Counted from the first letter of the stretch, positions 18,708 to 34,648 are shown. The stretch: DNA of 64,000 nt from Candidatus Rokuibacteriota bacterium (GCA_044867785.1 JBIOVM010000175.1:9091-73090), one strand, 5' to 3'. The notes: generated by a model not told the origin, from the letters alone. Made by a program: numbers and translations.

Positions 18708-19110
18708 ATGCGGACGGTCCGTCCCTTGCTCATCGGCCTGTTGCTTGCCCCCGGGGTGTTGATCGGAACCTGGATCGGCACGGGCAGCGGGCAAGGGACG
18801 GCCCCACCGCGGCCGCCGGGCGATGCGGTGACAGCAGGCTCAGACGCCGCAGGCGGCCCCGAGCACTCGGCCGGAGCAGCAGCAGACGCCGCACATGCAG
18901 GACTTGCGGGTCGAGCGGTTCGTCGACGAGGCGCCCCGCGGGCCGATCAAGACCTTCACCCCGTGCGGGATCAAGGACAGCCCGCCGTACCTCCACGACG
19001 GACGGCTGCTCACGCTCGAGAACACCGTGGAGTTCTTCAACCTGATTCTGGGCCTCGCGCAGAGCAACCAGGAGAAGGCCGATCTCGTCGCCTTCATGCG
19101 CCAGCTCTAG
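18708..19110 (+). pseudogene. Internally deleted cytochrome c peroxidase-like gene
   Basis: Signal-peptide-like N-terminus out of frame with C-terminus GPIKTFT..GIKDSPPYLHDGRLLTLENTVEFFN..EKADLVAFMRQL; no CxxCH retained. Confidence 0.7.
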
Positions 19111-19154
19111 CCATGGGCGGCGTGCTCGCCGTCACAGCGGGAGGGTGAGGGGCG

Positions 19155-20240
19155 ATGCTGTCGTTCGGCTTCGCGCGGCTGCCCCTCACGTGGTGGGCGC
19201 TCCTCACGCGGACCGTCAAGGAGTTCGTGGCGGACAACGGGCTCGGCCTGGCCGCGCAGCTGGCCTACTACTTCTTCTTCGCCCTCTTTCCCGCGGTGCT
19301 GGTGGGGGTCGCCTTCGCGAGCTTCTTCCCGCTCGAACACTTCGTGGACCGCATCGTCGGCACGCTCGGTGGCATCGTCCCCGGCGACGTCATCGGGATC
19401 CTCCAGGATCAGGTGCGGAAGATCTCGGAAGGCAACAACGGCGGGATCCTGACCTTCGGACTCCTCGCCGCCCTCTGGAGCAGCTCGGCCGCCCTCGTGG
19501 GGCTGATCGACGCGCTGAACCGCGCGTACGACATCGAGGAAGGCCGCCCCTGGTGGAAGGTGCGCCTGCTGGCGATCGGCCTGACGCTCGCGCTGGCGGT
19601 CTTGATTCTCGTCGCGTTCGCCCTGGTCCTCGTCGGTCCGACGGCCGCCGAGTACATCGCCCGGGTGACCGGCCTTGGCCCGGTCTTCGCCTGGACCTGG
19701 AAGATCCTCCAGTGGCCGGTGGTGCTGGCGCTCGTGGCAACGGGAGCGGGCTTCCTCTACTACTTCGCCCCCGACGCCGAGCAGGAGTGGGTCTGGGTGA
19801 CGCCGGGCGCCGTGCTCGCGGCGGCCATCTGGCTGGCCGCGTCACTCGGGTTCAAGTACTACGTGGCGAACTTCGCGACCTACACCGAGACCTACGGCGC
19901 CCTCGGCGGCGTGATGATCCTGCTCCTCTGGTTCTACCTCTCCGGCGTGGTGATGCTGGCGGGGGCCGAGCTCAATGCCGAGATCGAGCACGCGTCGCCG
20001 TACGGGAAGGCGGCCGGCGAGAAGGTGCCGGGCGCGAAGCGGGCAATCGGCGCGCTCGCCTACCGGCGGTACCTAACCCGGCCCCCATCGCCCCCCCGTC
20101 CGGCGCCCGCCGCGCTCCCGTCCCCGACGCCGGATCCCGCTCCGGGGACGCTCCGACGCGCCGTCGCGGCGATCGTCGCCGGGGTCATCGTCTTCCGGGG
20201 CAGTTCGAGGCCATCCGGCACGTCATCGACACGCACGTGA
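19155..20240 (+). CDS. YihY/virulence factor BrkB family membrane protein
   Basis: LAAQLAYYFFFALFP, ALNRAYD, YGALGGVMILLLWFYLS..GAELNA. Confidence 0.92.
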   Translation: MLSFGFARLPLTWWALLTRTVKEFVADNGLGLAAQLAYYFFFALFPAVLVGVAFASFFPLEHFVDRIVGTLGGIVPGDVIGILQDQVRKISEGNNGGILTFGLLAALWSSSAALVGLIDALNRAYDIEEGRPWWKVRLLAIGLTLALAVLILVAFALVLVGPTAAEYIARVTGLGPVFAWTWKILQWPVVLALVATGAGFLYYFAPDAEQEWVWVTPGAVLAAAIWLAASLGFKYYVANFATYTETYGALGGVMILLLWFYLSGVVMLAGAELNAEIEHASPYGKAAGEKVPGAKRAIGALAYRRYLTRPPSPPRPAPAALPSPTPDPAPGTLRRAVAAIVAGVIVFRGSSRPSGTSSTRT

Positions 20241-20357
20241 CGGGCACCGTGTGCCTGATCCGCAAGGCCGAGCCATGCGGGCACGGGGCCCGGGACGCAT
20301 CCTGATCCCCGGGTCGATCGCGCGGTCCATGCCGGCACCTATCAGGCCGTCTACAGC
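20198..20357 (+). pseudogene. Internal fragment of an SDR oxidoreductase
   Basis: Across frames: FEAIRHVIDTHVTGTVCLI, MRARGPGRILIPGSIA, GTYQAVY (truncated at the catalytic Tyr). Confidence 0.65.
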
Positions 20358-20365
20358 CCGATCCG

Positions 20366-20461
20366 GCCGGTTACGACATCTTTCTGACGAAACCTGTGGA
20401 TGCGGTGGAGCTGAGTACCATCGTGAGCCGCTCTGGGCGCCGGCCGACGGAAGGCGAATAG
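20366..20461 (+). pseudogene. C-terminal stub of a response-regulator receiver domain
   Basis: AGYDIFLTKPVDAVELSTIVSR..* with no upstream REC sequence. Confidence 0.6.
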
Positions 20462-20618
20462 GCAGACGACAGGGCGTGGGACTGCCTGACGATGCTCGAG
20501 CACCTCGAGGAGGCGAACTCTATCGGAGGCGGTCGAACTCCTCCAGAGAGCGGCCGAGTTGGCGGAGGATCTTGTAGAAGAGCCGAGCAGCGGGGAGGCA
20601 CCCGGGTGCCGGAGCGCA

Positions 20619-21533
20619 TCATCCGCGAAGTTCTAGGGCGGTCCGATGGCGCCGGGGGGCGATCGCGATCCTCTCGCCGGTCGGCAAGGGGCTGCTCGGG
20701 GGAAGCGGGCAGTTCCGGCACAACGCGTACCGATCGCGGAAGCCCGCCTCGAGATCCCTGACGAGACGCACGTGACGCTCGGAGAACCACAGCTCCTCCA
20801 GGGTGTTCCGGTGGATGCTGCCCAACCCGAAGGCCCCGTGCGTGTCCTCGCAGCAGTTGCAGATTTCGCCGTCCCACTGGACGATCATCCGGATCAGAGG
20901 ACGCCGACACGGGGCGTTCGGGAATCTGAGGTCCGGGACGCTCATCCGGGCGTCGGTCGGCACCAGGGCCCGTGGGATGGCCATGCTCGCGCCCCCCTGG
21001 CTCCCTCGCCGGCCGATGGCACTGAAGTCGAGCCGAGGGCAGGTCAGGCGCGCTCGCCAGAATCGCTTCTCGGCTTCGAGCTCCTCGTCCGAGCCGTAGT
21101 CGTAGAGCCCGACGACGACGTGCTCGTAGACCGCGCTCACCTCGCGGCACAAGGGGGCGTTCCGCCGCAAGGCATCGCCGTTGGTGTGGAGCCACGGCAC
21201 GAGCCCGCGTCGTCGCGCCTCGCGAGCCAGGCTCACGTTGCGCGGATCGAGCAACGGCTCGGAGTAGTGATGGAAGCCGACAAGGCCTCGGAACCCGAGC
21301 GTCCGCGCCTGATCCAGGATGTCCAGGATCGTGTCGGTGGGCATCGCGCGGATCACCGGTCCCCCCGAGGGATCGAGGTACTTGCCCGTGCGGTCGTAGG
21401 TGCGTGGGCAGAACCAACAGGACCGGTTGCAGTTGGACTGCGACTCCAGGCAGAGCTGCTCGAAGAGCGGAATCGCGTCGCGCGTCATGGGCGGCGTCCC
21501 GCGGGGCTCGCCGGCACCTCGCGACCCCGCCAT
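20619..21533 (-). CDS. Radical SAM protein with SPASM/Twitch domain
   Basis: CNRSCWFC (CX3CX2C), YSEPLLD, LHTNG, CRRP..MIVQWDGEICNCCED..GSIHRNTLEELW..CRNC; GGAG RBS before 21533. Confidence 0.9.
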   Translation of the reverse strand: MAGSRGAGEPRGTPPMTRDAIPLFEQLCLESQSNCNRSCWFCPRTYDRTGKYLDPSGGPVIRAMPTDTILDILDQARTLGFRGLVGFHHYSEPLLDPRNVSLAREARRRGLVPWLHTNGDALRRNAPLCREVSAVYEHVVVGLYDYGSDEELEAEKRFWRARLTCPRLDFSAIGRRGSQGGASMAIPRALVPTDARMSVPDLRFPNAPCRRPLIRMIVQWDGEICNCCEDTHGAFGLGSIHRNTLEELWFSERHVRLVRDLEAGFRDRYALCRNCPLPPSSPLPTGERIAIAPRRHRTALELRG

Positions 21534-21633
21534 GTCTCCTCGCCGGCCTCGTCCGAGCCGGAGCAGGCCCGCGCGAGCCGCGTCTCGTCCGGACCGGGGG
21601 TGGGCACGGCCAGGACGTCGGCCAACGGGACGG

Positions 21634-22320
21634 TCATTCCGCGCGCCCTCGCCGGCGGTCGAGGTGTCGCTTGACCAGCTGCGTGTAGTCGTCGCGCTTC
21701 TGGCGCTCCCGGCTCATGTTCATGGCGTGCAGCCGCCGCCGGACGAGCACTTCGGCGAGGACGTCGAACACGACGCGCCGCTCGCGCGCGCGGATGAACC
21801 AGTCACGGCAGGCGCCCGTCCTCAGCTCGGGATCGTACGGGCCCACCCGCGTGAAGACTTCGCGGCGGGCCAGCATGGCCGGGCTGCAATATCCGGGCAG
21901 GGGCTCCAACGAAGGTCCCGCGAGCGGGTCGGTCCGGTTGCCGTCCTCATCGGCCCAGAAGTTCTGGATGTACGTCACGTTGGCCTCCGCCTCGGCTCGT
22001 GCACGAAGGCGGTCGACCTGGCGCGCGATCTTTTCCGGGAGCCACACGTCATCGGCGTCGAGGAAGGCGATGAGGTCACCCCCGGCGGCGGCGATTCCCC
22101 GGTTACGGGCCGCCGCGAGGCCGGCATGCGGCTGCTCCACGCACCGTACTCGAGCACCGAACGCGGCGATCACGTCGCGCGTCCCATCGGACGACCCGTC
22201 GTTGACCACGACGACGTCCAGGGGCCGGTACGTCTGTCGGAGCACGCTGTCCAGGGCCTCGGCCAGATAGCGCTGGCCGTTCCAGACCGGCACGATGCAG
22301 CTGACCAGCGGTGCAGTCAT
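21634..22320 (-). CDS. Glycosyltransferase family 2
   Basis: VSCIVPVWNG, VVNDGSSD, ARNRG, FLDADDVW; ATGA overlap with the upstream gene. Confidence 0.92.
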   Translation of the reverse strand: MTAPLVSCIVPVWNGQRYLAEALDSVLRQTYRPLDVVVVNDGSSDGTRDVIAAFGARVRCVEQPHAGLAAARNRGIAAAGGDLIAFLDADDVWLPEKIARQVDRLRARAEAEANVTYIQNFWADEDGNRTDPLAGPSLEPLPGYCSPAMLARREVFTRVGPYDPELRTGACRDWFIRARERRVVFDVLAEVLVRRRLHAMNMSRERQKRDDYTQLVKRHLDRRRGRAE

Positions 22321-23483
22321 CGGGGCCCCGTCGCCGCCGCGGCCTCGGGCGAGGACGGCACCAGCCGTGTGTACAGCGCGTCGAAACTCGCCGTGCACCG
22401 CGCGAGGCCGAAGCGGTCACGCGCGCGCTCGCGAGCGGACCGGCCCATGCGCCGGGTCCGCTCAGGATGCGCGAGAAGATCCAATACCGCCCGCGACAGG
22501 CCTTCGACGTCGTCCTTGGCGGCCAGCCGACCCGTCTCTCCGTCGGCGACGACCTCGGCGAGCCCGGACACCGCGGTCGCCACGACGGGCCGCCCCATCA
22601 GCGCCGCCTCGATGGCCACCAGCGGCAAGCCCTCGCGGCGGGACGGCATCAGCACGAGCGTGGCCCGATTGATCACGGCCGGAACGTCTTTGGGAGCCAC
22701 GGCCCCGACGAAGCGGACTCCCTCGCCGAGACCGAGCTCACACGCCTCGCGCTCGAGACGCGGGCGCTCCCCCCCGTCGCCCGCGACCACCAGGCGGACG
22801 CCGGGCACGCGCCGGCGAACGTTGGCGAGCACCCGAAGGGCCACGTCGAACCCCTTTTCCGGCACGAGACGACCGAGGCAGAGGATGCGAGGAGGCTCGA
22901 AAGTCAGTTCGGCGGGAGCCTCCACGGGCTCCCTGACGGCATTGGGGATGACCGAGCTCCGTCTTCGCACCGAGGGGAACGCCTCGGTCACCTGGGCCAG
23001 GACGGCCGCGGATACGCTCACCACCCACGCCGCCTGATGAAGGACGCGCCGCAGCATCGAGCCCTGGCCGGAAGCCTGGCTCGCCAGCAGCTCGCCGTGA
23101 AGGTGGACGAGCAGCGGCACCGCGCGGGTCGCGGGGGACGACAGCGGCAGGAAGTAGGCACTCGGGCCGACGGGGCTCAGGTGGATCAGGTCGGGAGCCA
23201 TTTGCTCGACGAACGCGGCGACCTCACGCCGCAGTCCGGCGATGGCGCCGGTCGATCGGGACGCCACCGCGGGCCGGAACGGGAACCGATGGACGGGGAT
23301 GCCGCGATGATCGTCGCGGTCGGGGAGGCTGAGCCAGTCGTGCGAGGTCACGACCACGAACTCGTGGCCCTTCGCCCGCAAGGTCGGCAGGAGCTCCGCC
23401 GCCATCGTCTCGTTTCCGCCGATGTAGGGTCGGAAGAGCTCGGACCAGAACAGGACGCGCACGCCGCGAGGGGGGCCCATCAT
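22317..23483 (-). CDS. Glycosyltransferase family 4
   Basis: VLFWSELFRPYIGG, LGRLVPEKG, PSRREGLPLVAIEAA; ATGA overlap. Confidence 0.92.
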   Translation of the reverse strand: MMGPPRGVRVLFWSELFRPYIGGNETMAAELLPTLRAKGHEFVVVTSHDWLSLPDRDDHRGIPVHRFPFRPAVASRSTGAIAGLRREVAAFVEQMAPDLIHLSPVGPSAYFLPLSSPATRAVPLLVHLHGELLASQASGQGSMLRRVLHQAAWVVSVSAAVLAQVTEAFPSVRRRSSVIPNAVREPVEAPAELTFEPPRILCLGRLVPEKGFDVALRVLANVRRRVPGVRLVVAGDGGERPRLEREACELGLGEGVRFVGAVAPKDVPAVINRATLVLMPSRREGLPLVAIEAALMGRPVVATAVSGLAEVVADGETGRLAAKDDVEGLSRAVLDLLAHPERTRRMGRSARERARDRFGLARCTASFDALYTRLVPSSPEAAAATGPR

Positions 23484-24559
23484 GCGGCCACCCGGTCCAG
23501 GATCTCCTGTACGCGCCCGGCGATCTCCGTCAGATCGCGACCGAGATTCAGTCGATACGCGGGGATCCGGTCGACCAGGGTGGCGAGCGCCTCCGCCCCC
23601 GCTCGGCCCGGGCTCGGGACCCACGCGAGGAGGGAGCTCTGGACCAGCATCCGGAAGGCCTCGGCCTTGCCGAGGGGTGATGAGCAGGTCCGCGATGCGG
23701 TGGCGAGGCGAGGCAGCACGATCGCCCGCAACGGGACGCTCCGCAGCAGGCGGATGCCCGGCACCCGGCTCAGCAGGACCAGGGCCTTCGGCTCGGCCGG
23801 CGGGCGCCCCGGGAGGGCGTGCCCGGCGAGGCGGCCGAACCGCTCGAGGTCCTCGGGGGCTATCCGGCTCGAGCCATACACGCTGTGCCCGGTGAAGCCG
23901 CCGCCCGGCGCCTGCTCGACGGCCACGAGATCGTCACCGAGATAGGCGAATCCGGCCTCGACACAGAGGAGCGCACAGGTCGTCTTGCCCACGCCTCCGC
24001 CGCCCGCCACCAGCATGCCCTTCCCCTTGGAGGCGACGAGGGCGGCGTGGACCGCGTGGACGCCGCGGTCCCTGAGCCAGATGGAGAGGAGCGGTGTGAA
24101 AGGCTTCGCCCGCTCGCAGAGCGGCAGGCCGGCGGCGTGCGCGTAGCATGCCACGACGTGCGGGCCGCGACGGTCAAGCCATGCGAGGGCCTCGCCGCGC
24201 TCGAAGGTCAGGTGACGATCCGCCGCGGCCGTCGTCAGCATCCCCCCGTCACAGGGGCGGGCACTGTCCCCGTGGACCCATCCGTGGCCGGCCCGGCGCC
24301 CCGCGCGCGGGCTGGGGATCCCCGTCGCCCCGGCGTCCCAGACGTCGGCGTGAACTGCGGGTGGCTCCTCGCGCTCCGGCTCGGACCGCAGGTGAGAGAA
24401 GACAGCGTCCAGGCTGCGCGCAAGCTCGGCACCGACGACCCGGAGCCGCGTCGGCGCCCCCGCGATGACGTAGTCCTGCACGACCAGCTGAGCCGCCGGT
24501 GCCTCACGCGCCCGCCGGAAGCCATCGGCGAGGTGCCCTTGGGCCTCGGCGGCGTTCAT
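23480..24559 (-). CDS. HPr kinase-like P-loop kinase
   Basis: VHAALV...GMLVAGGGGVGKTT...YLGDDLVAV (HprK-type His, Walker A and DD motif); ATGA overlap with the PqqD gene. Confidence 0.85.
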   Translation of the reverse strand: MNAAEAQGHLADGFRRAREAPAAQLVVQDYVIAGAPTRLRVVGAELARSLDAVFSHLRSEPEREEPPAVHADVWDAGATGIPSPRAGRRAGHGWVHGDSARPCDGGMLTTAAADRHLTFERGEALAWLDRRGPHVVACYAHAAGLPLCERAKPFTPLLSIWLRDRGVHAVHAALVASKGKGMLVAGGGGVGKTTCALLCVEAGFAYLGDDLVAVEQAPGGGFTGHSVYGSSRIAPEDLERFGRLAGHALPGRPPAEPKALVLLSRVPGIRLLRSVPLRAIVLPRLATASRTCSSPLGKAEAFRMLVQSSLLAWVPSPGRAGAEALATLVDRIPAYRLNLGRDLTEIAGRVQEILDRVAA

Positions 24560-24972
24560 TCCGTTGGCTTGAGCGATGGCATGGGCGGGTCGAGCGCCAA
24601 CAGGTCGGCCATGTCCCGATACGCGTGAAGGAGGGGGGCGGTGTACTCGCCGGCCCCGAACCCCGGCACGGTGATGGACGGGCGCGGGTGGGCCTCCGCC
24701 TCGGCGACGAGCAATTCCTCGCGGACCAGTTCGGTCACGAACCGCCCGACGTCTTCCCCCGCGCGATCCCGGGACAACCCGAAGTGCTCGGCCACCTTCG
24801 TGACGATGTCGCCCAGCGACGTCCCGGACTCCAGGAGCTGCCACACGACCGCGGCCGAGCCTTCGGCGCTGTAGTATCGGCCGCTCTGGAGGTGGATCAT
24901 GACGGCTTCCCCGTCGAGTACCGACGCCGCCACGGTCTCGGGACACCGGAACCGCCTGGTGTCATCCAGCAT
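24556..24972 (-). CDS. PqqD-family RiPP recognition element with C-terminal leader-like tail
   Basis: VLDGEAVMIHLQSGRYYS..GSAAVVWQLL...DVGRFVTELVREELL (RRE), then YTAPLLHAYRDMADLLALDP. Confidence 0.9.
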   Translation of the reverse strand: MLDDTRRFRCPETVAASVLDGEAVMIHLQSGRYYSAEGSAAVVWQLLESGTSLGDIVTKVAEHFGLSRDRAGEDVGRFVTELVREELLVAEAEAHPRPSITVPGFGAGEYTAPLLHAYRDMADLLALDPPMPSLKPTE

Positions 24973-26077
24973 GCCCTCGCCTCCTCTTCAACGACGCATA
25001 GTGGTCGAGATAGGCATCCACACATGCCTTCCACGGGAACACGGTGCGGGCTCGGGACCGAGCCTCCTGACCCATCGCGAGCAATCGTGCCGGATCGGAC
25101 AGGAGCCGGACGACGGCCTCGACGAGCTGCGCGGGCTGGTCCGGCTCCACCAGGACCCCAGTCCTCTCGGGCTCCACGACTTCGACCAGCCCGCCGACCC
25201 GCGCCGCGACGACCGGGCGGCCCATGGCGGCGGCTTCGAGAGCCACGAGCCCGAAGGCCTCGGCCCGCGATGGGACCAGGACCAGGGACGCATGATTCAG
25301 GAGCGCGGGGACGCCGGCAGGGGGGACCGGCCCCCTGAACTCCACGCAATCGTCGATCCCGAGTCTCCGCGCCTGCGCGCGTAGCGGGCCAGCCTCGGGG
25401 CCCTCTCCCGCCACGACGAGTCGGGCCGCGGGCACGAGCTGCCGCAGCGCCACCATGGCGGCGACGGCGACGTCGAACCCCTTCACGCGCACGAGGCGTC
25501 CGACACAGAGCAGCGTCGGCGGCTCGATCGGCACGGGCGTGGCCTCGGCCCACTCGATCCCGTGATGGACGACGGACGAGCGGGCCGGCACGATGGGCGC
25601 GATCGCGGCCGTCTCCCGGAGGACGGCGTGTGAGACGCCGACCACCCAGTCGGCCTGCGTCAGCACGCGCCAGAGAAGGGTTCCGGGCGAGGGGCGATGC
25701 CGGATCCACCCGTGGATCGTGACGAGGGTCGGCGCGGGCCACGCCTCGCGGGTGACGAGATGATAGAAGACACTCGGCCCCAGGCTCGACAGGTGGACGA
25801 CGTCGGGCCGAAACGCACGCTTGAATCCGGCGACGGCCTCGCGGATGGCGAAGACCCGCGCGCGATCGGCCCCGGCCAGCGATTCCCAGAACGGGAAGCG
25901 ACAGACCGGCGTCGATCCGTCCTCGACGCGGCACCGATCGTCATCGTTCGGGTCATTCCCCGTCAAGACGCGAACCTCGTGATCGCGCTCCGTCAGGGTG
26001 CGGACGAAGCGCGCGCCCCAGACCTCCGCCCCCCCGATCGCCGGGGCAAAGGCTTCCGACCAGAACAAGACCTTCAT
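24962..26077 (-). CDS. Glycosyltransferase family 4
   Basis: MKVLFWSEAFAPAIGG, VGRLVRVKG, PSRAEAFGLVALEAA; paralog of 22317-23483. Confidence 0.92.
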   Translation of the reverse strand: MKVLFWSEAFAPAIGGAEVWGARFVRTLTERDHEVRVLTGNDPNDDDRCRVEDGSTPVCRFPFWESLAGADRARVFAIREAVAGFKRAFRPDVVHLSSLGPSVFYHLVTREAWPAPTLVTIHGWIRHRPSPGTLLWRVLTQADWVVGVSHAVLRETAAIAPIVPARSSVVHHGIEWAEATPVPIEPPTLLCVGRLVRVKGFDVAVAAMVALRQLVPAARLVVAGEGPEAGPLRAQARRLGIDDCVEFRGPVPPAGVPALLNHASLVLVPSRAEAFGLVALEAAAMGRPVVAARVGGLVEVVEPERTGVLVEPDQPAQLVEAVVRLLSDPARLLAMGQEARSRARTVFPWKACVDAYLDHYASLKRRRGHAG

Positions 26078-26596
26078 GGGGCGGCAGGGAGGCGCGCTGT
26101 GGGATGTCGGCGACGGCCCGGGCGCGGCACCACGGCTCGACCCCTACGGATCCGCCTCGAGCCGCATCCACACGCGCACGGAAGCCCCGGCTATCGGGTG
26201 CAAGACCGGCGTGACATCACTTCAGGACAGGCGACCGATGACACGTCATGCCCCGAGTCCTGGGATCGCAGCAAACCAGCCGATTCGCGACGTCGGCGAG
26301 GGTTCGCCGACGCCACACGAGCTCGGACGACGTTTCCGCGTGGTTTCGGTTCCCGTTCGACCAGAGGCCACGGGGCCCGTAGATCTCCGTGCCGCCCCCT
26401 TACCGATCACACACCGAGAAGGCTCGGTGAAGTAGAGCAGGAAGAAGCGGATCTCTACAAGGCCGGGCCCCCCGTCCCCCGTCGGCCTTGGGCTGCACCC
26501 CGCTCGATGCGGCTGCACGATAGCGCGTCGCCAGCGGGGCCGGCAAGGGTCTCCGGAGTCGCGCAGGGCTCCCACCGCACGCGGCGCGGGTGACCG

Positions 26597-28414
26597 TTAG
26601 GAGCTCGGCCCGCCCGCGATCTTCTTGATCGTCCGCTCGGCGACCGCACGATTCGGGGGATCGGCCGCGACCACGTCCTGAAGGTCACGCACGGCGCCCG
26701 TGCTCGCCGGGGCCATGGCGCCGAGCGCCATCACGGCGGCAGCGCGCACCAGCTCATCCGGGTCCTTCAGGGTGCGCACGAGCGCGGGGACGGCGTCCGG
26801 CGCCGCGTCCCGGGCTCGCATGAGGGCGAGAGCGGCCGCCTGGCGCACGCTGGGGTGCGCGTCGGTGAGCGCGCGGCTCAGCATCCCGCCCGCCGCCGTC
26901 GGCGGGCCGGACGTGGCCAGGAGCCCGACGACGGCGCACTGCCGGATCCGGGCATCGGGATCGTCGAGCGCGTCAACGAGGACCGCCGTACCCTCCGGGA
27001 TCGCAAGCTTGGCGTTCAACAGCGTCACCGCCGCCGTCGTTCGAACGCCGCTGTCCGGATCCTCGAGCGCCCTCGTCAGCGCGGCGACCAGCTCGGGCGG
27101 CCACGGCGGATCGAGCATGGGCACGCTCGCGCCCCAGCGGCGGCGGCGCGGATCCGCGCTCAGGAGCGCCCGCACCGTGTCCGAGGATTCATGGGCCCGT
27201 GCCGCCGGCAGGAGTCTGGCGGCGTCGCGATCCTCGAGGCTCGCCTCCCGCATCGCGCGGACGAGCGTCGTCACGACCGCGTGATTGCCGGGGTCCGTTC
27301 TCAGCACGCCCCACGCGGCGACGAGGCGGGCGAGAGGATCCGGATCGCTCAAGGCTTGGAGCAGCTCGGGCGGGGGGCTCTGGGCCGGCCCGTCCAGCAC
27401 CGTCAGCGCTCCAAGCGCGAAGAGTCGCGTGTCGCGGTCGGGGTTCTTCGTCGCGGCAACCAGCGCCGGTCGCGCGGGCGTGGCCGCCGCGCCGAGGCTC
27501 CCCAGGACCATCGCCGCGGCGCGGCGAACCTCCGGGTCGCGATGCCGCAGGGCGCCGGTCAGCCCGGGCACCACGTCCGTGGACGCCGGCCCGATTTGGA
27601 GGAGGGCCGCCGCGGCGTTCTGTCGAACCGTCGCGTCAGGGTCGCCCGTGAACGCGAGGAGGAGGGCCGGAGCGGCGCTCTTCGCTGCGGGACCCATCAT
27701 CGTGAGGCCCATGCTCCCCGCCCGGCGCAGCGTGACGTCGTTCGCCCTGAACGCCGACACCAGGACGGCCGTGACGGTCTGCGGCTCCTGCCGGGACGTG
27801 GCCATCGCGACCGCGGCCGTGAGCCGAACCTCCGGGTCGGCGTCCTTCAGGGCCGGCGCCAGGACGGACCCGACCGGCCCAGCGCCGCTCCCGGTGACCT
27901 GGGCGAGCACGTTCGCCGCCTTGCGCCGAACCGCGACGGTGGGCGAGGCGAGGTCCCGCCGCCATTCGTCCACGGTGCGGCCTTCGACGATCGCCGCCGA
28001 GAGCTGGGGCGGCAGGCTGGCGGCGACCGCTGGGGCGGACGGAGGCCGTGACCTGCGCGCCGGCGGTGGACTCCCGGCGCCGGGCGATCCCTTCGCGCTG
28101 GGCGCCGGAGCCGGCAGCGCTGACGCGGGTGGGGAAGCGGACGGGGCGGGAGCCGGGAGGGATGGCCCCTCGATCCGCACGACGTCGGCCTTCGGGATGC
28201 GCATGGTTCCGTTGTCGAGGACCATCTCGAGCTCGTCGCCCACCTCGCGCCAGGCCCGCACCTCCACCGTGCCGCCGCTCGTGACGTGGATGATAGCCGC
28301 GGGCGCCTGGGACGCGAGCAGGAGCCCGGTCAACGGGATCACCGTGCGGGCGAGCCTCTGGAGGACCGCGCGGTCGGGACGGGCTCGCCCGCTGGTGGCG
28401 TCGGGGACTCGCAT
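26597..28414 (-). CDS. Exported HEAT-repeat (PBS lyase-like) protein
   Basis: Signal peptide, Pro/Ala linker, roughly 10 repeats of LxDxDxxVRxxAAxAL. Confidence 0.85.
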   Translation of the reverse strand: MRVPDATSGRARPDRAVLQRLARTVIPLTGLLLASQAPAAIIHVTSGGTVEVRAWREVGDELEMVLDNGTMRIPKADVVRIEGPSLPAPAPSASPPASALPAPAPSAKGSPGAGSPPPARRSRPPSAPAVAASLPPQLSAAIVEGRTVDEWRRDLASPTVAVRRKAANVLAQVTGSGAGPVGSVLAPALKDADPEVRLTAAVAMATSRQEPQTVTAVLVSAFRANDVTLRRAGSMGLTMMGPAAKSAAPALLLAFTGDPDATVRQNAAAALLQIGPASTDVVPGLTGALRHRDPEVRRAAAMVLGSLGAAATPARPALVAATKNPDRDTRLFALGALTVLDGPAQSPPPELLQALSDPDPLARLVAAWGVLRTDPGNHAVVTTLVRAMREASLEDRDAARLLPAARAHESSDTVRALLSADPRRRRWGASVPMLDPPWPPELVAALTRALEDPDSGVRTTAAVTLLNAKLAIPEGTAVLVDALDDPDARIRQCAVVGLLATSGPPTAAGGMLSRALTDAHPSVRQAAALALMRARDAAPDAVPALVRTLKDPDELVRAAAVMALGAMAPASTGAVRDLQDVVAADPPNRAVAERTIKKIAGGPSS

Positions 28415-28617
28415 GGCGTTCCTTTCGGAGATGAGCGCGTCTAGCCTCGGCCGGGTCGCGCGAACACTCTCCCACAGGCACCGGCCGGGCTCGGGCGAAA
28501 TTCGGCGCGCAGGCGCCGGAAGCGGGGTCGCCTCCCACCTGGTCGCGGCTTCCCCCGGGACGGGCGGTCGACCGCGGCCGATGGGCCGGCGTCCGGCCGC
28601 GTCTCAGCCGCTCCCGC

Positions 28618-29142
28618 CTACGTCCCGCAGACGATGCGCGCCAGGGAATCGGCCAGCCCGTCGGCGATCTTGTCGAGCGCAGGGCCCGGGAGGTTGCCGA
28701 TCGGGTGGTCGCAGTCGAGGAATGCGTAGTCCGGCGCGCCCCAGCTCGCGGCCATCGCCTGCGCCGTCCTGCGGAACGGCGTGGTGACGATCGCGACGGC
28801 CGGCACGCCCTGCTGCTCCATCAGGATGGCGTCGAGCACACTGCTCGACGAGCACGACCCTCAGTCGCCGACGCCGGAGATCACCAGATCGGCATCGCGC
28901 TTCAGCGCGGCGATCGCCTTGGCGTCGACCTCGTGGCTCGGGGAGCGCTTGACGTCCCGCATGGTCACTCGTGTCCCATGCTTGGCGCCCAGCCGGTCGG
29001 CGATCTTCTCCAGGATGAGCCCGGCGTTCACCTTGCGGTTGTCCACCAGGCCGAGGCGCACCCCGCAGAGGCTCGCCGGACGCGGCGCTAGCCGCAGGGT
29101 CGAGGGCCCCGTGGGCTTGCTCGTCGGATCGAAGAGCTTCAT
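28618..29142 (-). CDS. UGSC-family selenoprotein (Sec at UGA 28861-28863)
   Basis: Track ORFs 28861..29184 and 28618..28839 share a frame and are separated by one TGA in GVGD-U-GSC. A hairpin follows the UGA; ATGA coupling to the upstream gene. Confidence 0.88.
28830..28850 (-). promoter_or_regulatory. Bacterial SECIS-like hairpin
   Basis: CGUCGAGCA-GUG-UGCUCGACG: perfect 9-bp stem starting at nt 11 after UGA, with GU in the loop. Confidence 0.75.
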
Positions 29143-30167
29143 GGGCCACCCCCTCGGATGCGGGTCGTGATGCTGCGCGTCCACTTGTTGCCCCAGCCGG
29201 GAAGGACCGCGGACCAGCTCCCGGCCCCGCCGGCGCAGACGATCAGGAGATCGTCCGGGGACGCGAAGCCGTAGCGCCAGGTCGCGTCGTCATTCGCCGT
29301 GATCTCGCCCGGCAGCCGCGCCGCTCGCTTCAGGTCGCCGACCCGGCGCCGGCAGTTCTCCACGAGGAACGTCTGGACGTCCCGACGGCTCCACCCGTTG
29401 GCGCGCATGACGTCGGCGTGCTCGAAGCCCATCACGACGAGGCTCTGGTTGAAGCCGTAGACATTCGGCGAGCCGAGGTTGTAGAGGGCATCGGCGTAGC
29501 ACAGGAGGATGGCCTCTGGCGTGGCCGCGAGCTGATTGTAGACCTGACAGAGGCTGTTCGACGCGTAGAGCGTGAGCGTGCTCTCGTGGGCCTGGAAGCC
29601 GCGACTGACGTGGAACGGCTCCCACGGCGTGTCCTCGCGCTCGGCGAAGCAGAACGAGTACTTGCCGGGAGTGCCGAGCGTGGCCCGGTCGAGGTATCCC
29701 GGCCGGGTGTTGAGCGCGTTCATCATGATGAGCCGCACCGCACGACCGATGGTCGCGTTCGCGCGATGGCCCTGGCCGAATGCGTTGTGGCCGCTGTTGA
29801 TGTCGAGCTCTCGAGCGATCGGGCCGTTGATGATGAGCACCATCGCCGAGCCGCCGGTGCTGCTGGCGGGACCGTGATAGGCGAACTCCGGCTGGCAGAG
29901 GCTCTTCACCGCCGCGACCACGACCGGCGCGTACTCGGGCCTGCAGCCGGCCATGACGGCGTTGATCGCCAGGCTTTCGGCGGTCACCACGGCGTTGCGC
30001 CCGGGAACCTCGCCGATGACTTCATCGCCCGGCGCCCCGGTGGCCTTCAGCATCTCCGCGAGGGTCGCGTCGCTGGGCGGGACGACGGGAAGCCCATCCG
30101 TCCATCCGGCGGCGTAGTAGGCCTCGATCAGGGCGGCGGGATCGGCGGCGCCGTCCGTCACGTCCAT
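29139..30167 (-). CDS. UGSC-associated uncharacterised protein
   Basis: GWTDGLPVVPP, AINAVMAGCRPEY, NGPI, RANATIGRAVRL, CFAE motifs; I recognise this family as adjacent or fused to UGSC domains. Confidence 0.85.
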   Translation of the reverse strand: MDVTDGAADPAALIEAYYAAGWTDGLPVVPPSDATLAEMLKATGAPGDEVIGEVPGRNAVVTAESLAINAVMAGCRPEYAPVVVAAVKSLCQPEFAYHGPASSTGGSAMVLIINGPIARELDINSGHNAFGQGHRANATIGRAVRLIMMNALNTRPGYLDRATLGTPGKYSFCFAEREDTPWEPFHVSRGFQAHESTLTLYASNSLCQVYNQLAATPEAILLCYADALYNLGSPNVYGFNQSLVVMGFEHADVMRANGWSRRDVQTFLVENCRRRVGDLKRAARLPGEITANDDATWRYGFASPDDLLIVCAGGAGSWSAVLPGWGNKWTRSITTRIRGGGP

Positions 30168-30492
30168 GCCGTCAACCTCGCGGAAGGCGGTCGCGCGACC
30201 GAGTCCTCAGGGGTCGACGGTCCGACCCGTGCGCGGTGACGAGCGCGATCGCCATCGTCTGCGCCATCATCGCCATCGCGAGTCGCTCGCCCGCTCTGGA
30301 AGCCGGGCGCTGCCGCGCCCGACGAGCGCGCGCGAGCGGGCCGGTCGGAGCGGGGCGCGTCACCGGATCGGCGACGGCCCACACGCCCGAGTCCTCCGCC
30401 ACGGCGTCGGTCCCCTCGAGCAAGGGCCGGCGGCGCGCGACTCGGCACACGATCGACAGCGGCGCCTCACGGGTCGGGGCGAGCCCCGCGCG

Positions 30493-30783
30493 TCAGCGGG
30501 CCGAGGCCCGGGGCGCGGCCGGGCGGATCCCGTAGAGGTATCGCACGCCGTCCGCCTCCGTGTGCTCCGCGTGCACGGTGCCGGCGGGGACGATCCACGA
30601 CTCGCCCGGTCCATACGTGACCCGGTCCTGGCCGAGAGCGAGAGTGAAGTGTCCGTCCAGGACGAACAGGCGCGTATCGTGGTCGTGGGCGTGCAGCTGG
30701 CGGTGCGTGTGGGGCTGGATCTCGCCTTCGTGGATCTCGTAGCCTTCCCGTCGAAGATCGGCCTCGAACTCGGCTCGGGTCAT
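30493..30783 (-). CDS. Cupin domain protein
   Basis: HAHDHD..VLDG...PGESWIVPAGTVHAE; AGGAGG RBS. Confidence 0.88.
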   Translation of the reverse strand: MTRAEFEADLRREGYEIHEGEIQPHTHRQLHAHDHDTRLFVLDGHFTLALGQDRVTYGPGESWIVPAGTVHAEHTEADGVRYLYGIRPAAPRASAR

Positions 30784-30792
30784 GGCGTCCTC

Positions 30793-32835
30793 CTAGCGCG
30801 CGGTGTGGGTGTACGCGGCGACCTCCACGCGCGCGTCGTTGTAACACGCGCCGTGGGAGATGTCGGCCTTGTGGGTGGGCGCGAGGGCGCTCACCGTCTG
30901 GCCGTTGTCGCTGGTGCGCATCCACGCGCCCTTGAGCGAGCAGACCACGCCGCGGCAAATGGCGTCGGTCACGCGCAAGGGCAGGTGGACCTCGCCGAGG
31001 TCGTTCCACACCTTGACCAGCGTGCCGTCGGACAGGCCGCGGGCGCGTGCGTCGTCGGGGTGCATCTCGAGCGGCGGGGTGGCGTCGCTGCCCGACTGGC
31101 CGCCGAAGGTCGAGGTCGTGCGCTGGTCCGAGGCCGGCGTGATCAGGACCAGGGGGTAGGGCGACGCCACCGGCCGGTAGCTCGGCAGCCGCGCACGGTA
31201 CTTGCCCTCGAGATAGGGCGAGGCCAGCTCCACCTTGCCCGAGGCGGTCTTCGGCCGGACGTTGCGGAACATGATCGCGTCTTCCCCCGCGATGGTCATC
31301 AAGAGCGCGCGATCCAGGGGCAGCGCGCTCGGGCGCACGCCGCCCAGGCGGGGGTCGGCGGGATCGACGGCGTCGTCCATCAGCTCGTGATCGGAGGCGC
31401 CGAAGCAGGGGTCGTCGAAGCCGAAGCGCGCGGCCAGGCGGCGGAAGATCTCGCTGTTGGGCAACGACTCGCCCACCGGCGGGATCACCGGCGCCGCCCG
31501 CTGCAGCCAGTGCGCGCCGTAGGCGGCGTACAGGTCGTCGTACTCGAAGTGGCTGCAGGCGGGCAGCACGACGTCGGCGTAGGCCAGGCTGTCCGTCATC
31601 ACCACGTCGATGCCCACGGTGAACAGGTCCGGCTGGGCCAGGCCGCGCCGCATCAGGTTCTGGTCGGGGTGCACGACCAGCGGGTTGTGGTTGTAGACGA
31701 ACAGCGCGCGGATCGGCGGCGACAGGGCGGGGTCCAGCAGGTGGCGCCCCACATCGATGATGTTGAGGGTGCGCGTGCCCGCCGGGACGAAGTCGGGTCG
31801 GGCCAGCTTGGCCGGTGTCTTGACGAAGACATGGCCCGCGCCGTTGACCAGGCCGCCGCCGGGCACGCCCCACTTGCCGGCCAGCGCCGGCAGCGCGAAG
31901 ACCGCGCGCACGCCGCTGCCGCCGTTCTGGTTGCGCTCGAGCCCGTTGCCGACCGCGATCGCCGCGGGCGAGATCGTGTGGTACCACTCGGCGAGCTGGA
32001 GGATCCGCGCTTCCGGCACCGCGCACTCTCGGGCCGCCGCGGCCACCGTCCAGCGCCGCGCCTCCGTCATGAAGTCTTCGAAGCCGGCCACGTGCTCGGC
32101 GATGAAGGCGCGGTCGAGACCGCCGCGGCGCTCGAGCTCCGCGGCCAGCGCCCAGGCCAGCACCACGTCGGTGCCCGGGCGCAGCGCGACGTGCAGGTCG
32201 CACTGCTCGGCGATCTTGGTGCGCTTGGGGTCGACCACCACCACCTTGGCCCCGCGCCGCCTGGCCTCGTTGACCACCGGGACCTGGTGCAGGTTCGACC
32301 ACGTCAGGTTGTTGCCCCACGCGATGAACAGCCTGGAATGCACGACCTGCTCCGGGCGGATCCCCGGCGCCGCGCCGTACGTGCCCATCCAGGCCTCGGA
32401 GCGGATGCCGCCGCAGAGCGGGCGCCGGTCGAGCAGGCTCGCGCCGAGCCGGTGAAAGAAGCGCAGGTCCATGGACCCGCCGGCGACGAAGCCGTGCGGG
32501 CCGCCGTAGTTCAGCGGGAGCACGGACTGCGGGCCGTGCTCGGCGATGGCGAGGCTCACGCGGTCGTGGATCCGGTCGAGCGCCTCGGCCCAGGAGATTC
32601 GCTGGAAGCGGCCCTCGCCCTTCGCACCCACGCGCCGCAGGGGCGTGGTGAGTCGCCCCGGCCCGTGCACGAAGTCGGGGTAGTGGTTCTGCACCTTGGC
32701 GCAGATCACCCCCGCCGTGTAGGGATTCGCCTTCGAGCCGCGGATCTTGACGATCTTCGCGGCCTCCACCGTGACGGTGAGGCTGCAGGTGTCGGGGCAA
32801 TCCAGGGGACAGACGCTCGCGCGCTCGACGCTCAT
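30793..32835 (-). CDS. Molybdopterin-dependent oxidoreductase
   Basis: CPLDCPDTC..ICAK Fe-S motif, LRPGTD, ADVVLPA, MHPDDARARGL; AAGGAG RBS. Confidence 0.92.
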   Translation of the reverse strand: MSVERASVCPLDCPDTCSLTVTVEAAKIVKIRGSKANPYTAGVICAKVQNHYPDFVHGPGRLTTPLRRVGAKGEGRFQRISWAEALDRIHDRVSLAIAEHGPQSVLPLNYGGPHGFVAGGSMDLRFFHRLGASLLDRRPLCGGIRSEAWMGTYGAAPGIRPEQVVHSRLFIAWGNNLTWSNLHQVPVVNEARRRGAKVVVVDPKRTKIAEQCDLHVALRPGTDVVLAWALAAELERRGGLDRAFIAEHVAGFEDFMTEARRWTVAAAARECAVPEARILQLAEWYHTISPAAIAVGNGLERNQNGGSGVRAVFALPALAGKWGVPGGGLVNGAGHVFVKTPAKLARPDFVPAGTRTLNIIDVGRHLLDPALSPPIRALFVYNHNPLVVHPDQNLMRRGLAQPDLFTVGIDVVMTDSLAYADVVLPACSHFEYDDLYAAYGAHWLQRAAPVIPPVGESLPNSEIFRRLAARFGFDDPCFGASDHELMDDAVDPADPRLGGVRPSALPLDRALLMTIAGEDAIMFRNVRPKTASGKVELASPYLEGKYRARLPSYRPVASPYPLVLITPASDQRTTSTFGGQSGSDATPPLEMHPDDARARGLSDGTLVKVWNDLGEVHLPLRVTDAICRGVVCSLKGAWMRTSDNGQTVSALAPTHKADISHGACYNDARVEVAAYTHTAR

Positions 32836-33226
32836 GGGCGGGCTCCTTCGGCTCGATCTGGGCCGTCGCCTCACTGTAGGTCGAGGCCCCTATGCGGGAC
32901 AATGGCCAAGCCGGCGCCGCGGCGCTCGGCCATTCGCCGGCGCCGGGTCGGGACAGCTGATCGAGCCCGGGGACGGCGAGGAGGGCCGCGCCCAGGCACG
33001 GGAAGCTCGCCGGGGGACCGGCCCGCCCGGGTAGTCGTCCCGCAAGGCAGCGCGACGCGGCACGCCGGCTCGACAAGCTGTCCACGCCGTCGCCGCACCG
33101 CCGCCGGCCGAAACCATTTGCGCCGCCCGGCGGTTCTCGTAGTGAGCAGCGCACCCGACGTCCCTCGTGCGCCTCTACGTTGAGTCGCGATTCCGAGCCA
33201 CTCCTTCACCATCGGGAGGACTCCCC

Positions 33227-34648
33227 ATGCGCTTCTTGAAAGTGGCCCTGATCGGGCTGGGCCTCGGCGCGACCCTCGCGCTGGCCCCCGACGCACGGGC
33301 TGACCTGAACGCCGTCGCCCAGGCCATGGGGGCGGACCGGCTCGACAGCATCCAGGTGTCCGGCGCGGGCTATGCCTACGCGGTCGGCCAGGCATACCAG
33401 CCGGGCGAGGCCTGGCCCAAGCTGAACCTCCCGCGGTACACGCGCGTCGACGACTACGCCAAGGCGGCCTACAGCTTCGACTACGCCTTGAGCCGGGCCG
33501 AGGTGCGAGGCGGCGGCGCGATCCCTCAAATCGGCGAGGTGCGGCGCACCGGCGGCGTCGCCGGCGACCGGGGGTGGAACGTCGTGTACCCGCAAGGGAC
33601 GGCCGCCCAGGCGGGCGCGGCCGCCTTCCAGCACGACCTCTGGGTGAGCCCCCACGGCGTCGTCAAGGCGGCGCTGGCGGACCAGGCCGTCATGAGCGGC
33701 TCGACGTTCGAGATCGTGCGCGCGGGTCGCTTCCGGGCGCGGGCCCTCGTCAACAGCCAGAACCTGGTCGAGAAGGTCGAGTCCTGGATCGACAACCCGG
33801 TGCTGGGCGACATGGCCGTCGTCACGACCTATGCCGACTATCGCGACCACGGGGGCGTGAAGTTCCCCGCCCGCATCACGCAGGCCATGGGCGGCTATCC
33901 GGTGCTCGAGCTGAACGTGGCCGAGGTCAAGGTCAACGCGGGGAGCGTCGTCGCGCCGCCGTCCATCGCCCCGGCCGTGGTCGAGGTGAAGGTGGACAAG
34001 GCCGCGGAGGGGGTGTGGTTCGTCCACGGGGGCTCGCATCACAGCGTCGCCGTCGAGATGCGCGACCACGTCGTCGTGATCGAGGCGCCGCTGGGGGACG
34101 CCCGGGCCAACGCCGCGCTGGACGCGGTGCGGAAGACCGTTCCCGGCAAGCCCATCCGCTACGTCGTTCCCACGCACCATCACTTCGATCACTCCGGCGG
34201 ATTGCGGGCGGCTGCGGCCGCCGACGCCGTCCTCGTCGTGCCCGAGGGGAGCCGGGCCTTCTACGAGAAGGCCTACGCTGCGCCGCGGACGCTCAACCCC
34301 GACACGCTGGCCAAGGCCGGGAAGCCGGCGAAGTTCGAGACGTACCGGGACAAGCACGTGCTCAGCGACGGGTCCCGGACGATCGAGCTCCACACGCTCC
34401 GGGAGAACGTTCACGCCGAGGGTTTCGTCGTCGGCTACCTGCCGGCGGAGAAGATCCTGATCGTGGCCGACGCGTTCAGCCCGCGGGCCCCGGTGACGCA
34501 GACGCCGGCGAACATCAATCCGGCCACGAAGAACCTGTGGGAGAACATCGAGCGGCTCAAGCTCGACGTCCAGACGGTCCTCCCGATCCACGGCAGGATG
34601 GTGAAGGTCGACGAGCTGAGGCTCGAGGCCGGCGCCGCCCGCCCCTGA
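33227..34648 (+). CDS. Exported MBL-fold metallo-hydrolase
   Basis: Signal peptide, THHHFDHSGG, HAEG, ADAF, PIHG; GGAGG RBS. Confidence 0.9.
   Translation: MRFLKVALIGLGLGATLALAPDARADLNAVAQAMGADRLDSIQVSGAGYAYAVGQAYQPGEAWPKLNLPRYTRVDDYAKAAYSFDYALSRAEVRGGGAIPQIGEVRRTGGVAGDRGWNVVYPQGTAAQAGAAAFQHDLWVSPHGVVKAALADQAVMSGSTFEIVRAGRFRARALVNSQNLVEKVESWIDNPVLGDMAVVTTYADYRDHGGVKFPARITQAMGGYPVLELNVAEVKVNAGSVVAPPSIAPAVVEVKVDKAAEGVWFVHGGSHHSVAVEMRDHVVVIEAPLGDARANAALDAVRKTVPGKPIRYVVPTHHHFDHSGGLRAAAAADAVLVVPEGSRAFYEKAYAAPRTLNPDTLAKAGKPAKFETYRDKHVLSDGSRTIELHTLRENVHAEGFVVGYLPAEKILIVADAFSPRAPVTQTPANINPATKNLWENIERLKLDVQTVLPIHGRMVKVDELRLEAGAARP

Follow-up and report, generated by a model that had tools for sequence, protein, structure and literature searches.

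Lasso-peptide tailoring parts in a glycosyltransferase operon of a Candidatus Rokuibacteriota bacterium: a conserved, uncharacterised module

Background

What could an operon make that puts a lasso-type peptide-recognition domain and a partner kinase beside three glycosyltransferases and a radical S-adenosylmethionine (SAM) enzyme? The question is raised by six genes at positions 20619-26077 of a 64,000-nucleotide stretch of DNA from a soil bacterium of the Candidatus Rokuibacteriota (GCA_044867785.1, JBIOVM010000175.1:9091-73090), which we analysed as a whole and call the window. A scan for open reading frames (ORFs) and Pfam domains places all six on the minus strand, with the reading direction from 26077 to 20619. 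They encode, starting with GT4a as the first gene of the operon, a family 4 glycosyltransferase (GT4a), a PqqD protein, a kinase resembling HprK, a second family 4 enzyme (GT4b), a family 2 glycosyltransferase (GT2) and the radical SAM enzyme. PqqD-type domains are recognition elements (RREs) for RiPPs, peptides that are synthesized ribosomally and then modified post-translationally, and RREs are usually seen as leader-peptide readers for peptide natural products.

An initial annotation described the locus as an uncharacterised phospho-glyco modification system and left two alternatives, a new RiPP-like class or RiPP machinery co-opted for surface-glycan assembly. Our analysis confirms the observation with corrections and supports the interpretation in part, as co-opted RiPP machinery fits better than a new RiPP-like class. 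The nucleotidyltransferase genes of sister loci strengthen the link to phospho-glyco tailoring, and the radical SAM enzyme turns out not to be of the peptide type. Overall, our data suggest that the window holds a shortened copy of a module for glycoconjugate assembly that is widespread, uncharacterised and built on lasso-peptide tailoring parts, an interpretation that we hold with about even confidence.

Results and discussion

Conservation of the module

In its full form, as observed in sister loci, the module consists of a lasso-B1-like RRE with a leader-like tail, an ScmC/HprK-like kinase, an NTP_transf_5 nucleotidyltransferase, arrays of GT4 and GT2 genes and a BtrN-like radical SAM enzyme, often together with an NAD epimerase, AsnB-type amidotransferases and HD-domain proteins. 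We take NTP_transf_5 to be the family of PsmN, an enzyme of pseudomycoidin biosynthesis. The kinase and the nucleotidyltransferase have a precedent in that pathway, where an HprK-type kinase phosphorylates the C-terminal Ser of the lasso peptide and PsmN is required to add one or two hexoses to the phosphorylated peptide (PMC6993621).

We found a kinase homolog in 16 of 41 genomes (the window genome and 40 relatives), with up to 7 matches per genome. The best match in the 40 relatives is 40% identical, and there is no close ortholog. The 17 kinase-anchored loci of these relatives all have GT2/GT4 genes; 15 have a tail-bearing PqqD, 10 have NTP_transf_5 and two have the radical SAM gene. A second set of loci, anchored on the radical SAM enzyme, came from a scan of one genome per species, which gave 19 close homologs (53-68% identity) and one distant match. 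These loci cover at least seven phyla, with taxa including Gemmatimonadota, Binatia, 'delta proteobacteria', Rokubacteria, Methylomirabilis, Chloroflexota, Thermodesulfovibrionia, Cryomorphaceae, Desulfocapsaceae and others. A GT2/GT4 homolog is present in 18 of the 19 loci and PqqD and/or the kinase in 13: both in 10, PqqD only in one and the kinase only in two. Five further loci have glycosyltransferase genes only (several of them on short contigs) and one has none of these genes. The radical SAM gene and NTP_transf_5 occur together in 7 of the 19 loci, so the two genes are not alternatives. Synteny, which the initial annotation had proposed to check, is conserved by both counts, and since the gene set recurs in many genomes and phyla the arrangement is more than chance.

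The kinase family is not rare. At 50% identity its profile matches 42,989 clusters at E <=1e-3, 12,218 at E <=1e-10 and 3,163 at E <=1e-30. Within the phylum it is patchy, with 15 of 151 genomes matching at E <=1e-20 (8 of the 101 high-quality genomes).

The sister loci carry up to a dozen GT4/GT2 genes each. Their accessory genes encode AsnB-type amidotransferases, NAD epimerases, UDP-glucose dehydrogenase, polysaccharide deacetylases, heparinase II/III, HD/DUF6817 proteins (some fused to SMP-30-like domains), sulfotransferases, PMT_2 membrane glycosyltransferases, ATP-grasp enzymes and phosphopantetheinyl transferases. Two ATP-binding cassette (ABC) exporters, one Wzt and one Wzx-type protein are also among them. 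The exporters combine ABC_membrane and ABC_tran, are similar to lasso D proteins, and lie inside two of the loci (L053 and L062).

Surface-polysaccharide loci, dependent on Wzx/Wzy or on an ABC transporter, likewise have many GT4/GT2 genes, epimerase, UDP-glucose dehydrogenase, deacetylases and AsnB-type amidotransferases, and the likeness extends to the Wzx-type gene in one sister locus and the Wzt in another. In contrast to loci that depend on undecaprenyl phosphate, a priming phosphoglycosyltransferase (Bac_transf, Glycos_transf_4), a polymerase and a ligase were found neither in the window nor among the 81 accessory ORFs of the sister loci; the two Bac_transf genes of the genome are on other contigs (C72 and C147). 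That no priming transferase was found fits a synthesis that begins without polyprenyl phosphate. We know of no polysaccharide pathway that includes the trio of RRE, kinase and nucleotidyltransferase.

The PqqD protein and its tail

The RRE domain occupies about residues 12-88 of the PqqD protein and is followed by a C-terminal tail with Y110-x-x-P113-x-L115 and then a DM..LL.LDP motif. The PqqD proteins of the module have ~138-157 residues (24 aligned) versus 99 for the lasso-cluster B1 protein of the same genome. After the RRE domain and a variable linker the tail reads aromatic-x-x-P-x-L-x-x-[YF]-x-D-[ML]-x-x-L-L-x-L-D-P, usually followed by W, and it is almost unchanged between phyla. Reading the alignment, we found aromatic-x-x-P-x-L in 23 of the 24 sequences and the distal W motif in 21 of the 23 other relatives, the window protein being without it. 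Conservation in the 24 sequences is at least 90% at P113 and L115 and complete at D128 and P129. The YxxPxL motif is carried by lasso leaders, and Y-x-x-P-x-L-T is also present in small ORFs of the genome's own lasso cluster.

The AlphaFold2 (AF2) model of the PqqD protein has a mean predicted local distance difference test (pLDDT) value of 86.5, rising to 92 at residues 111-120, with a strand at 116-118 and the last 18 residues uncertain. Its best fold match is the lasso B1 protein TbiB1 with leader (5v1v, E 1e-6, template modelling (TM) score on target 0.90), and 6jx3, a lasso B1 protein crystallised with leader peptide, is a further match. The simplest reading would be that the tail fills the leader groove in cis. 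Fusing a leader is a trick that makes RiPP enzymes constitutively active, and an RRE with a fused leader-like tail would be its natural counterpart. The window protein scores under the cut-offs of the curated lasso PqqD models (48.4 vs 80; 41.5 vs 70) and has no match to the ScmD-type and HPr-rel-A PqqD models.

A different PqqD fusion was seen elsewhere in the same genome, in locus L010 (contig C69, 7876-9963, minus strand), whose 696-residue product joins a PqqD domain (25.1 bits) at the N-terminus to a membrane-fusion protein of the HlyD type. Its RRE appears to be attached to an export component.

The kinase and its predicted complex with PqqD

In the kinase, G186, G189, G191 and K192 of the P-loop and D210 are invariant, D209 is nearly so, and the GDD motif is conserved. 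The Hpr_kinase_C and TIGR00679 models match only ~50 residues of it (TIGR00679 29.7 vs 240), and from its sequence we read it as a probable relative, not a member, of HPr kinase/phosphorylase (PF07475, TIGR00679). PF27840 of Pfam 38.1, named ScmC in the Atlas, is precomputed on the cluster representative of the kinase and on 10 of 19 other hits. Sequence matches in the PDB are confined to the P-loop region of HprK. The AF2 model has a pLDDT of 90 and as a whole resembles the two-domain phosphoenolpyruvate (PEP) carboxykinase (E 2e-10, TM score on query 0.53-0.59).

Our modelling supports docking of the PqqD protein on the kinase. The model of the predicted complex scores 0.65 compared with 0.06 for the best of three controls, a value that is reached by 58 of 80 solved complexes and by 2 of 110 mismatched pairs. 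At least 39% of contacts are common to the runs, and the partner pLDDT is at least 77. The predicted interface joins kinase residues 297-330, which form two C-terminal helices, to residues 12-35 in the RRE sheet of PqqD and to positions 118, 120 and 121 of its tail; no P-loop contacts were reported in the model. An interaction among the encoded proteins, whose absence would have counted against the initial annotation, is predicted for this pair. Metagenomes also hold in-frame fusions of the kinase, namely GT2-kinase (two), GT4-kinase (one) and methyltransferase-kinase (one) (P0028, P0105, P0150, P0116).

The same complex could be a regulatory switch instead, in which the kinase phosphorylates or binds the PqqD-like protein as HprK/P does with HPr, the complex toggles the glycosyltransferases, and the product is an ordinary polysaccharide. 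HprK/P holds HPr with C-terminal helices too, as the kinase is predicted to do here. Across phyla the tail varies far less than RiPP cores usually do, as would be expected of a docking motif. The polysaccharide-type genes of sister loci point in the same direction, as does the occurrence of as many as 7 paralogous loci in a genome, with a set of glycosyltransferases that differs from locus to locus. On the other hand, the pair accompanies NTP_transf_5, the biosynthetic partner in pseudomycoidin, in 10 of the 17 kinase-anchored loci, the in-frame fusions to glycosyltransferases suggest a shared substrate, and the 81 accessory ORFs hold none of the priming transferase, polymerase and ligase of a polysaccharide pathway. 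We consider the switch improbable.

As a separate observation on the family, five genomes of one genus, g50 (G042, G046, G047, G097 and G149), match the C-terminal two thirds of the kinase profile with exactly one in-frame TGA inside the matching stretch. That it recurs suggests recoding, or a pseudogene that the genomes share, and not a sequencing error.

The radical SAM enzyme

The radical SAM enzyme has CxxxCxxC at residues 20-27 (C20, C24 and C27), aligned to the motif of BtrN. A three-sequence profile searched against all PDB sequences found BtrN only (E 4.8e-18), and a single-sequence search found BtrN (E 3.8e-15, two stretches) and DesII (E 0.007) only. The two stretches aligned to BtrN are the radical SAM motif and the C-terminal Fe-S region. 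In the latter, residues 184-261 align to BtrN 179-256 with C194, C212, C257 and C260 opposite Cys residues of BtrN, which we take to be the ligands of its auxiliary cluster. The radical SAM motif regions of the two proteins are near-identical, the C-terminal Fe-S Cys are aligned, and the sizes are similar (289 residues versus 269-270 in BtrN, the 2-deoxy-scyllo-inosamine dehydrogenase of butirosin; 4m7s, 4m7t). The enzyme differs from BtrN in having two extra Cys, C210 and C213, beside the aligned C212, and in being encoded in a glycosyltransferase operon and not in an aminoglycoside pathway. BtrN oxidises 2-deoxy-scyllo-inosamine and has an auxiliary cluster with Cys4 ligation (PMC10337720).

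The only solved relatives, BtrN and DesII, act on sugars or cyclitols, which points to sugar tailoring and not to peptide cross-linking. The enzyme is therefore probably of the sugar type; of the two kinds of substrate that the initial annotation named for such enzymes, peptides and sugars, the first does not hold.

A relic of the nucleotidyltransferase gene

The six genes were initially described as co-oriented, with the first five overlapping. All six are present and the overlaps were read, with 11 nt shared by the GT4a stop and the PqqD start and ATGA overlaps at the PqqD/kinase, kinase/GT4b and GT4b/GT2 junctions. The description needs a correction between GT2 and the radical SAM gene, where the gap is filled by a 50-codon ORF that has an ATGA overlap with the GT2 stop and another with the radical SAM start at 21488, so that the chain consists of seven ORFs. 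Over its first ~38 residues this ORF can be aligned to the N-terminal ends of 11 NTP_transf_5 proteins encoded in sister loci, and tblastn puts it within the NTP_transf_5 genes of L033 and L049. As a relic of an NTP_transf_5 N-terminus, the ORF implies that the window operon descends from a form ending in GT2-NTP_transf_5, the gene having since been lost. With this loss the copy would rely on another NTP_transf_5 of the genome, which has four such genes elsewhere (the one in the paralogous locus described below is one candidate), or would make its product without that step.

We also considered the 50-codon ORF as a precursor gene, given the ATGA at both ends and its third-position G+C content (GC3) of 0.88. 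This was rejected because of the alignment with NTP_transf_5 and the absence of the ORF from L035, the most similar syntenic locus (GT4-PqqD-kinase-GT2-radical SAM), where the gap between GT2 and the radical SAM gene has no such ORF.

The relic region seems to vary between strains. A weak sign of this is one RNA-library contig, from a ~95% identical strain, in which 236 other letters replace the 89 bases 21497-21585 in the relic ORF.

Should the window copy then be taken as a decaying, non-functional remnant of the module? Its NTP_transf_5 gene is cut to 50 codons, its PqqD tail is without the distal W motif, exporter or accessory genes were not found nearby (18 ORFs, 12-33 kb), and its best match in the 40 relatives is the 40% identical kinase mentioned above. 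Against decay, the six main ORFs are all intact, with a GC3 of 0.85-0.88 similar to that of other window genes, and their stop/start overlaps are kept. The stretch is present in soil and rhizosphere runs from 13 studies, and a metagenome scan for the kinase found three short contigs that are 97-100% identical and add no orthologous context. Two RNA libraries also yielded contigs (95-99% identical) that cover portions of the operon, one of them spanning PqqD, the kinase and the start of GT4b in 1,559 nt; DNA carry-over is possible in these libraries, in which strand, ends and level are not readable, so the contigs argue against decay without being proof of expression. We regard a dead remnant as very unlikely.

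The lasso cluster of the same genome and the search for a precursor

The genome has three pairs of a PqqD protein and an HprK-like kinase, in the window and on contigs C148 and C180. The locus on C148 is paralogous to that of the window and reads GT2, GT4, epimerase, GT4, PqqD, kinase (43% identical to the window kinase) and NTP_transf_5. C180 carries a canonical lasso cluster with a methyltransferase, B1 (99 residues, no tail), B2, a cyclase and an HprK-like kinase, and it is the only place in the genome with B2 (Transglut_core3) and the cyclase (Asn_synthase-like). The YxxPxL ORFs and the lasso B2 and cyclase genes that the initial annotation had proposed to look for are present in this cluster. 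Its RRE and kinase are but distant relatives of those in the window, with 28% identity over 39 residues for the RREs and 29% over 213 residues for the kinases. The lasso cluster comes with an RRE and a kinase of its own and so leaves the pair in the window unexplained, and an explanation of the pair by a lasso precursor and cyclase elsewhere, raised in the initial annotation, falls away.

The lasso cluster itself (L009, 8400-15700, minus strand) has four tandem precursor-like ORFs of 49-70 residues with Y-x-x-P-x-L-T. Two ORFs of 162-169 residues have the leader-like motif at the N-terminus, fused to a Peptidase_S74 (endosialidase chaperone) domain, and may be lasso precursors with a self-cleaving C-terminal domain. 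These are followed by the HprK-like kinase and an alternative-oxidase-like gene.

With the lasso clusters of the paeninodin/pseudomycoidin type (B1, kinase K and NTP transferase N) the window operon shares a lasso-B1-like RRE, a homologous P-loop kinase and YxxPxL, and most sister loci also share the NTP transferase (NTP_transf_5). It differs in that YxxPxL is fused to the RRE and not carried by a precursor, that the module adds GT4/GT2 genes and a radical SAM enzyme of the sugar type, and that a precursor gene, a B2 protease, a cyclase and an exporter were not found in the window. The 18 ORFs scanned at 12-33 kb contain no lasso cyclase, B2 protease, transporter or priming transferase, and the one small ORF of the operon is the relic, in agreement with the initial annotation, which had seen no cyclase, B2 protease, transporter or separate precursor at the operon. 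As B2, the cyclase and a free precursor were all looked for and not found, the operon is not a lasso cluster.

A true RiPP pathway may still be considered, in which a precursor with a YxxPxL leader, encoded elsewhere or too divergent to be found, would be bound by the RRE, phosphorylated, heavily glycosylated and secreted as a phospho-glycopeptide. The lasso-B1-like RRE, the homology of the kinase to the genome's lasso kinase, the lasso-D-like ABC exporters inside L053 and L062, and the YxxPxL-bearing peptides encoded at the genome's lasso locus speak for such a pathway, as does the combined action of a kinase and an NTP transferase on a lasso peptide in pseudomycoidin (PMC6993621). Our search for a free precursor with blastp-short found no family common to the loci in 1,088 intergenic small ORFs from 35 loci, a search that may miss very divergent precursors; the matches were only frame shadows of PqqD, Arg-rich or low-complexity noise and tRNA-linked ORFs. 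Further, the only small ORF of the operon is a gene relic, the RRE's own YxxPxL would compete with a leader in trans, the peptides of the lasso locus adjoin their own RRE and kinase, and the radical SAM enzyme is of the sugar type. We think such a pathway rather unlikely.

Relation to other HprK-related systems

The SynChlorMet system (ScmC, ScmE/ScmF) and the systems of HprK-related kinases A and B likewise have an HprK-like protein beside a radical SAM/SPASM enzyme. A PqqD-like protein is part of them as well, which the scan of family models does not show. To our knowledge these systems are defined by comparative genomics and their chemistry is not known. Curated family models exist for the related cassettes (ScmC, HprK_rel_A and HprK_rel_B in NCBIfam/TIGRFAM). 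The window kinase scores 31.3 vs 200 for HprK_rel_A and 30.4 vs 200 for HprK_rel_B, and the radical SAM enzyme scores 18.5 vs a cut-off of 400 for ScmE. With scores so far under the curated cut-offs, the window operon belongs neither to the SynChlorMet cassette nor to the HprK-related A/B systems. It differs from them also in its BtrN-like radical SAM enzyme and in the glycosyltransferase arrays that dominate the module.

For combinations of kinase, PqqD, RRE, nucleotidyltransferase and glycosyltransferase, the open-access and bioRxiv literature returned lasso-peptide papers only and none on this arrangement. For SynChlorMet only unrelated uses of 'SCMC' turned up.

A possible pathway and its weaknesses

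If the module assembles a glycoconjugate, the following order of events may be proposed. The [YF]xxPxL of the tail would sit in cis on the RRE, and the RRE-tail unit is predicted by the complex model to dock on the kinase's C-terminal helices. If it acts as lasso kinases do, the kinase would phosphorylate a hydroxyl of an acceptor held by this unit. Where present, the nucleotidyltransferase could then start a sugar on the phosphate, as PsmN does. GT4 and GT2 enzymes, judged by their families, would extend the sugar chain, and the radical SAM enzyme might oxidise a sugar hydroxyl in the manner of its homolog BtrN; the epimerase and this enzyme would tailor the sugars. A peptide or protein supplied in trans might serve as the acceptor, as might the RRE tail itself.

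A more specific form of this pathway is that PqqD is an RRE with a built-in leader and that PqqD itself, or a partner that it holds, primes a phosphate-linked glycan extended by GT4 and GT2, the enzymes having evolved from those of lasso tailoring. Glycogenin offers a loose comparison for such protein-primed phosphoglycan synthesis. We regard this form as unlikely.

Several findings weigh against the glycoconjugate module as we propose it. PqqD and the kinase are both unseen in the available DNA of 6 of the 19 radical-SAM-anchored loci, including L060, which is a full 20.8 kb stretch. No Ser or Thr of the tail is conserved family-wide, and the PqqD protein of L031 has none after the LDPP motif, which speaks against the tail as a Ser/Thr phospho-acceptor. 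The position of the tail in the groove is drawn from pLDDT and secondary structure alone. The kinase is under every curated cut-off (28.2 vs 125 for ScmC), hence its assignment as an active kinase is drawn from its motifs alone, and its full-length model is like PEP carboxykinase, a small-molecule kinase, so the substrate may not be a peptide. We found no acceptor. Sister loci with a Wzx-type gene, Wzt, heparinase II/III or deacetylases fit a plain polysaccharide pathway. Finally, with its nucleotidyltransferase gone and a PqqD tail that falls short of the length seen in relatives, the window copy may be partly disabled or impaired.

Gene calls and neighbouring genes

The window has ~71% G+C, for which reason genes were called from third-position G+C plus Pfam. 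Table 1 gives the coordinates of the operon and of the region upstream of it.

Table 1. Features of the operon and its upstream region in the window, with the model scores or other evidence for each
Feature	Position	Strand	Evidence
GT4a, family 4 glycosyltransferase, 371 aa	24962..26077	-	Glycos_transf_1 131.5 bits, Glyco_transf_4 72.6 bits
PqqD/RRE protein, 138 aa	24556..24972	-	PF05402 57 bits vs cut-off 23.4
HprK-like/ScmC-family P-loop kinase, 359 aa, two domains	23480..24559	-	Hpr_kinase_C 27.9 bits vs cut-off 33.3
GT4b, family 4 glycosyltransferase, 388 aa	22317..23483	-	Glycos_transf_1 136.6 bits
GT2, family 2 glycosyltransferase, 228 aa	21634..22320	-	Glycos_transf_2 111.2 bits
50-codon ORF, NTP_transf_5 (PsmN-like) N-terminal relic	21485..21637	-	alignment with NTP_transf_5 N-termini
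BtrN-like radical SAM enzyme, 289 aa, Twitch/SPASM-type C-terminal Fe-S region	20619..21488	-	SPASM 40.5 vs 21.5
Upstream intergenic region, ~520 nt, HEAT-repeat gene to GT4a	26078..26596	.	presumed promoter region

The radical SAM protein scores 26.2 bits against the Radical_SAM model (cut-off 29.5). An alternative start of its gene at 21533 would give 304 residues; the N-termini of homologs fit the start at 21488. GT4a and GT4b also pass the Pfam GT4-conflict model (69.2 and 66.8 bits), with scores below those for their generic GT4 models. The operon lies between a HEAT-repeat gene upstream and a convergent BrkB-family gene downstream. We found no Rfam match in 19000-33500, no match to a sigma-70-like promoter or an intrinsic terminator in 20000-27000, and no PADLOC defence-system family for the six operon proteins.

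The HEAT-repeat protein (26597-28414, minus strand) matches the HEAT-ARM models of PADLOC (70.4 bits) and is 61-63% identical to a homolog at 13548-14718 of L037. In this one relative the homolog adjoins a locus of PqqD, kinase and four GT2 genes, and the other flanking genes are not common to both. Further upstream is a UGSC-family gene (28618-29139, minus strand), of which both halves match PF24696 and are split by an in-frame TGA at 28861-28863. The codons G-S-C come directly after the TGA, a perfect 9-bp hairpin lies a few bases downstream, and the genome encodes SelA (501 bits). This gene is most likely a selenoprotein read as two ORFs.

Conclusions

The module is real, conserved and uncharacterised, and in it lasso tailoring parts are reused in a glycosyltransferase setting. 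Outside the lasso context, in large glycosyltransferase operons of many phyla, it brings together a lasso-type RRE with its partner kinase and, in its full form, a PsmN-type nucleotidyltransferase. If the product is a phosphate-linked glycan on a peptide or protein, the module would be a new bacterial route to glycoconjugates without a polyprenyl-phosphate primer, and a large family of 'hypothetical' kinases would gain a function.

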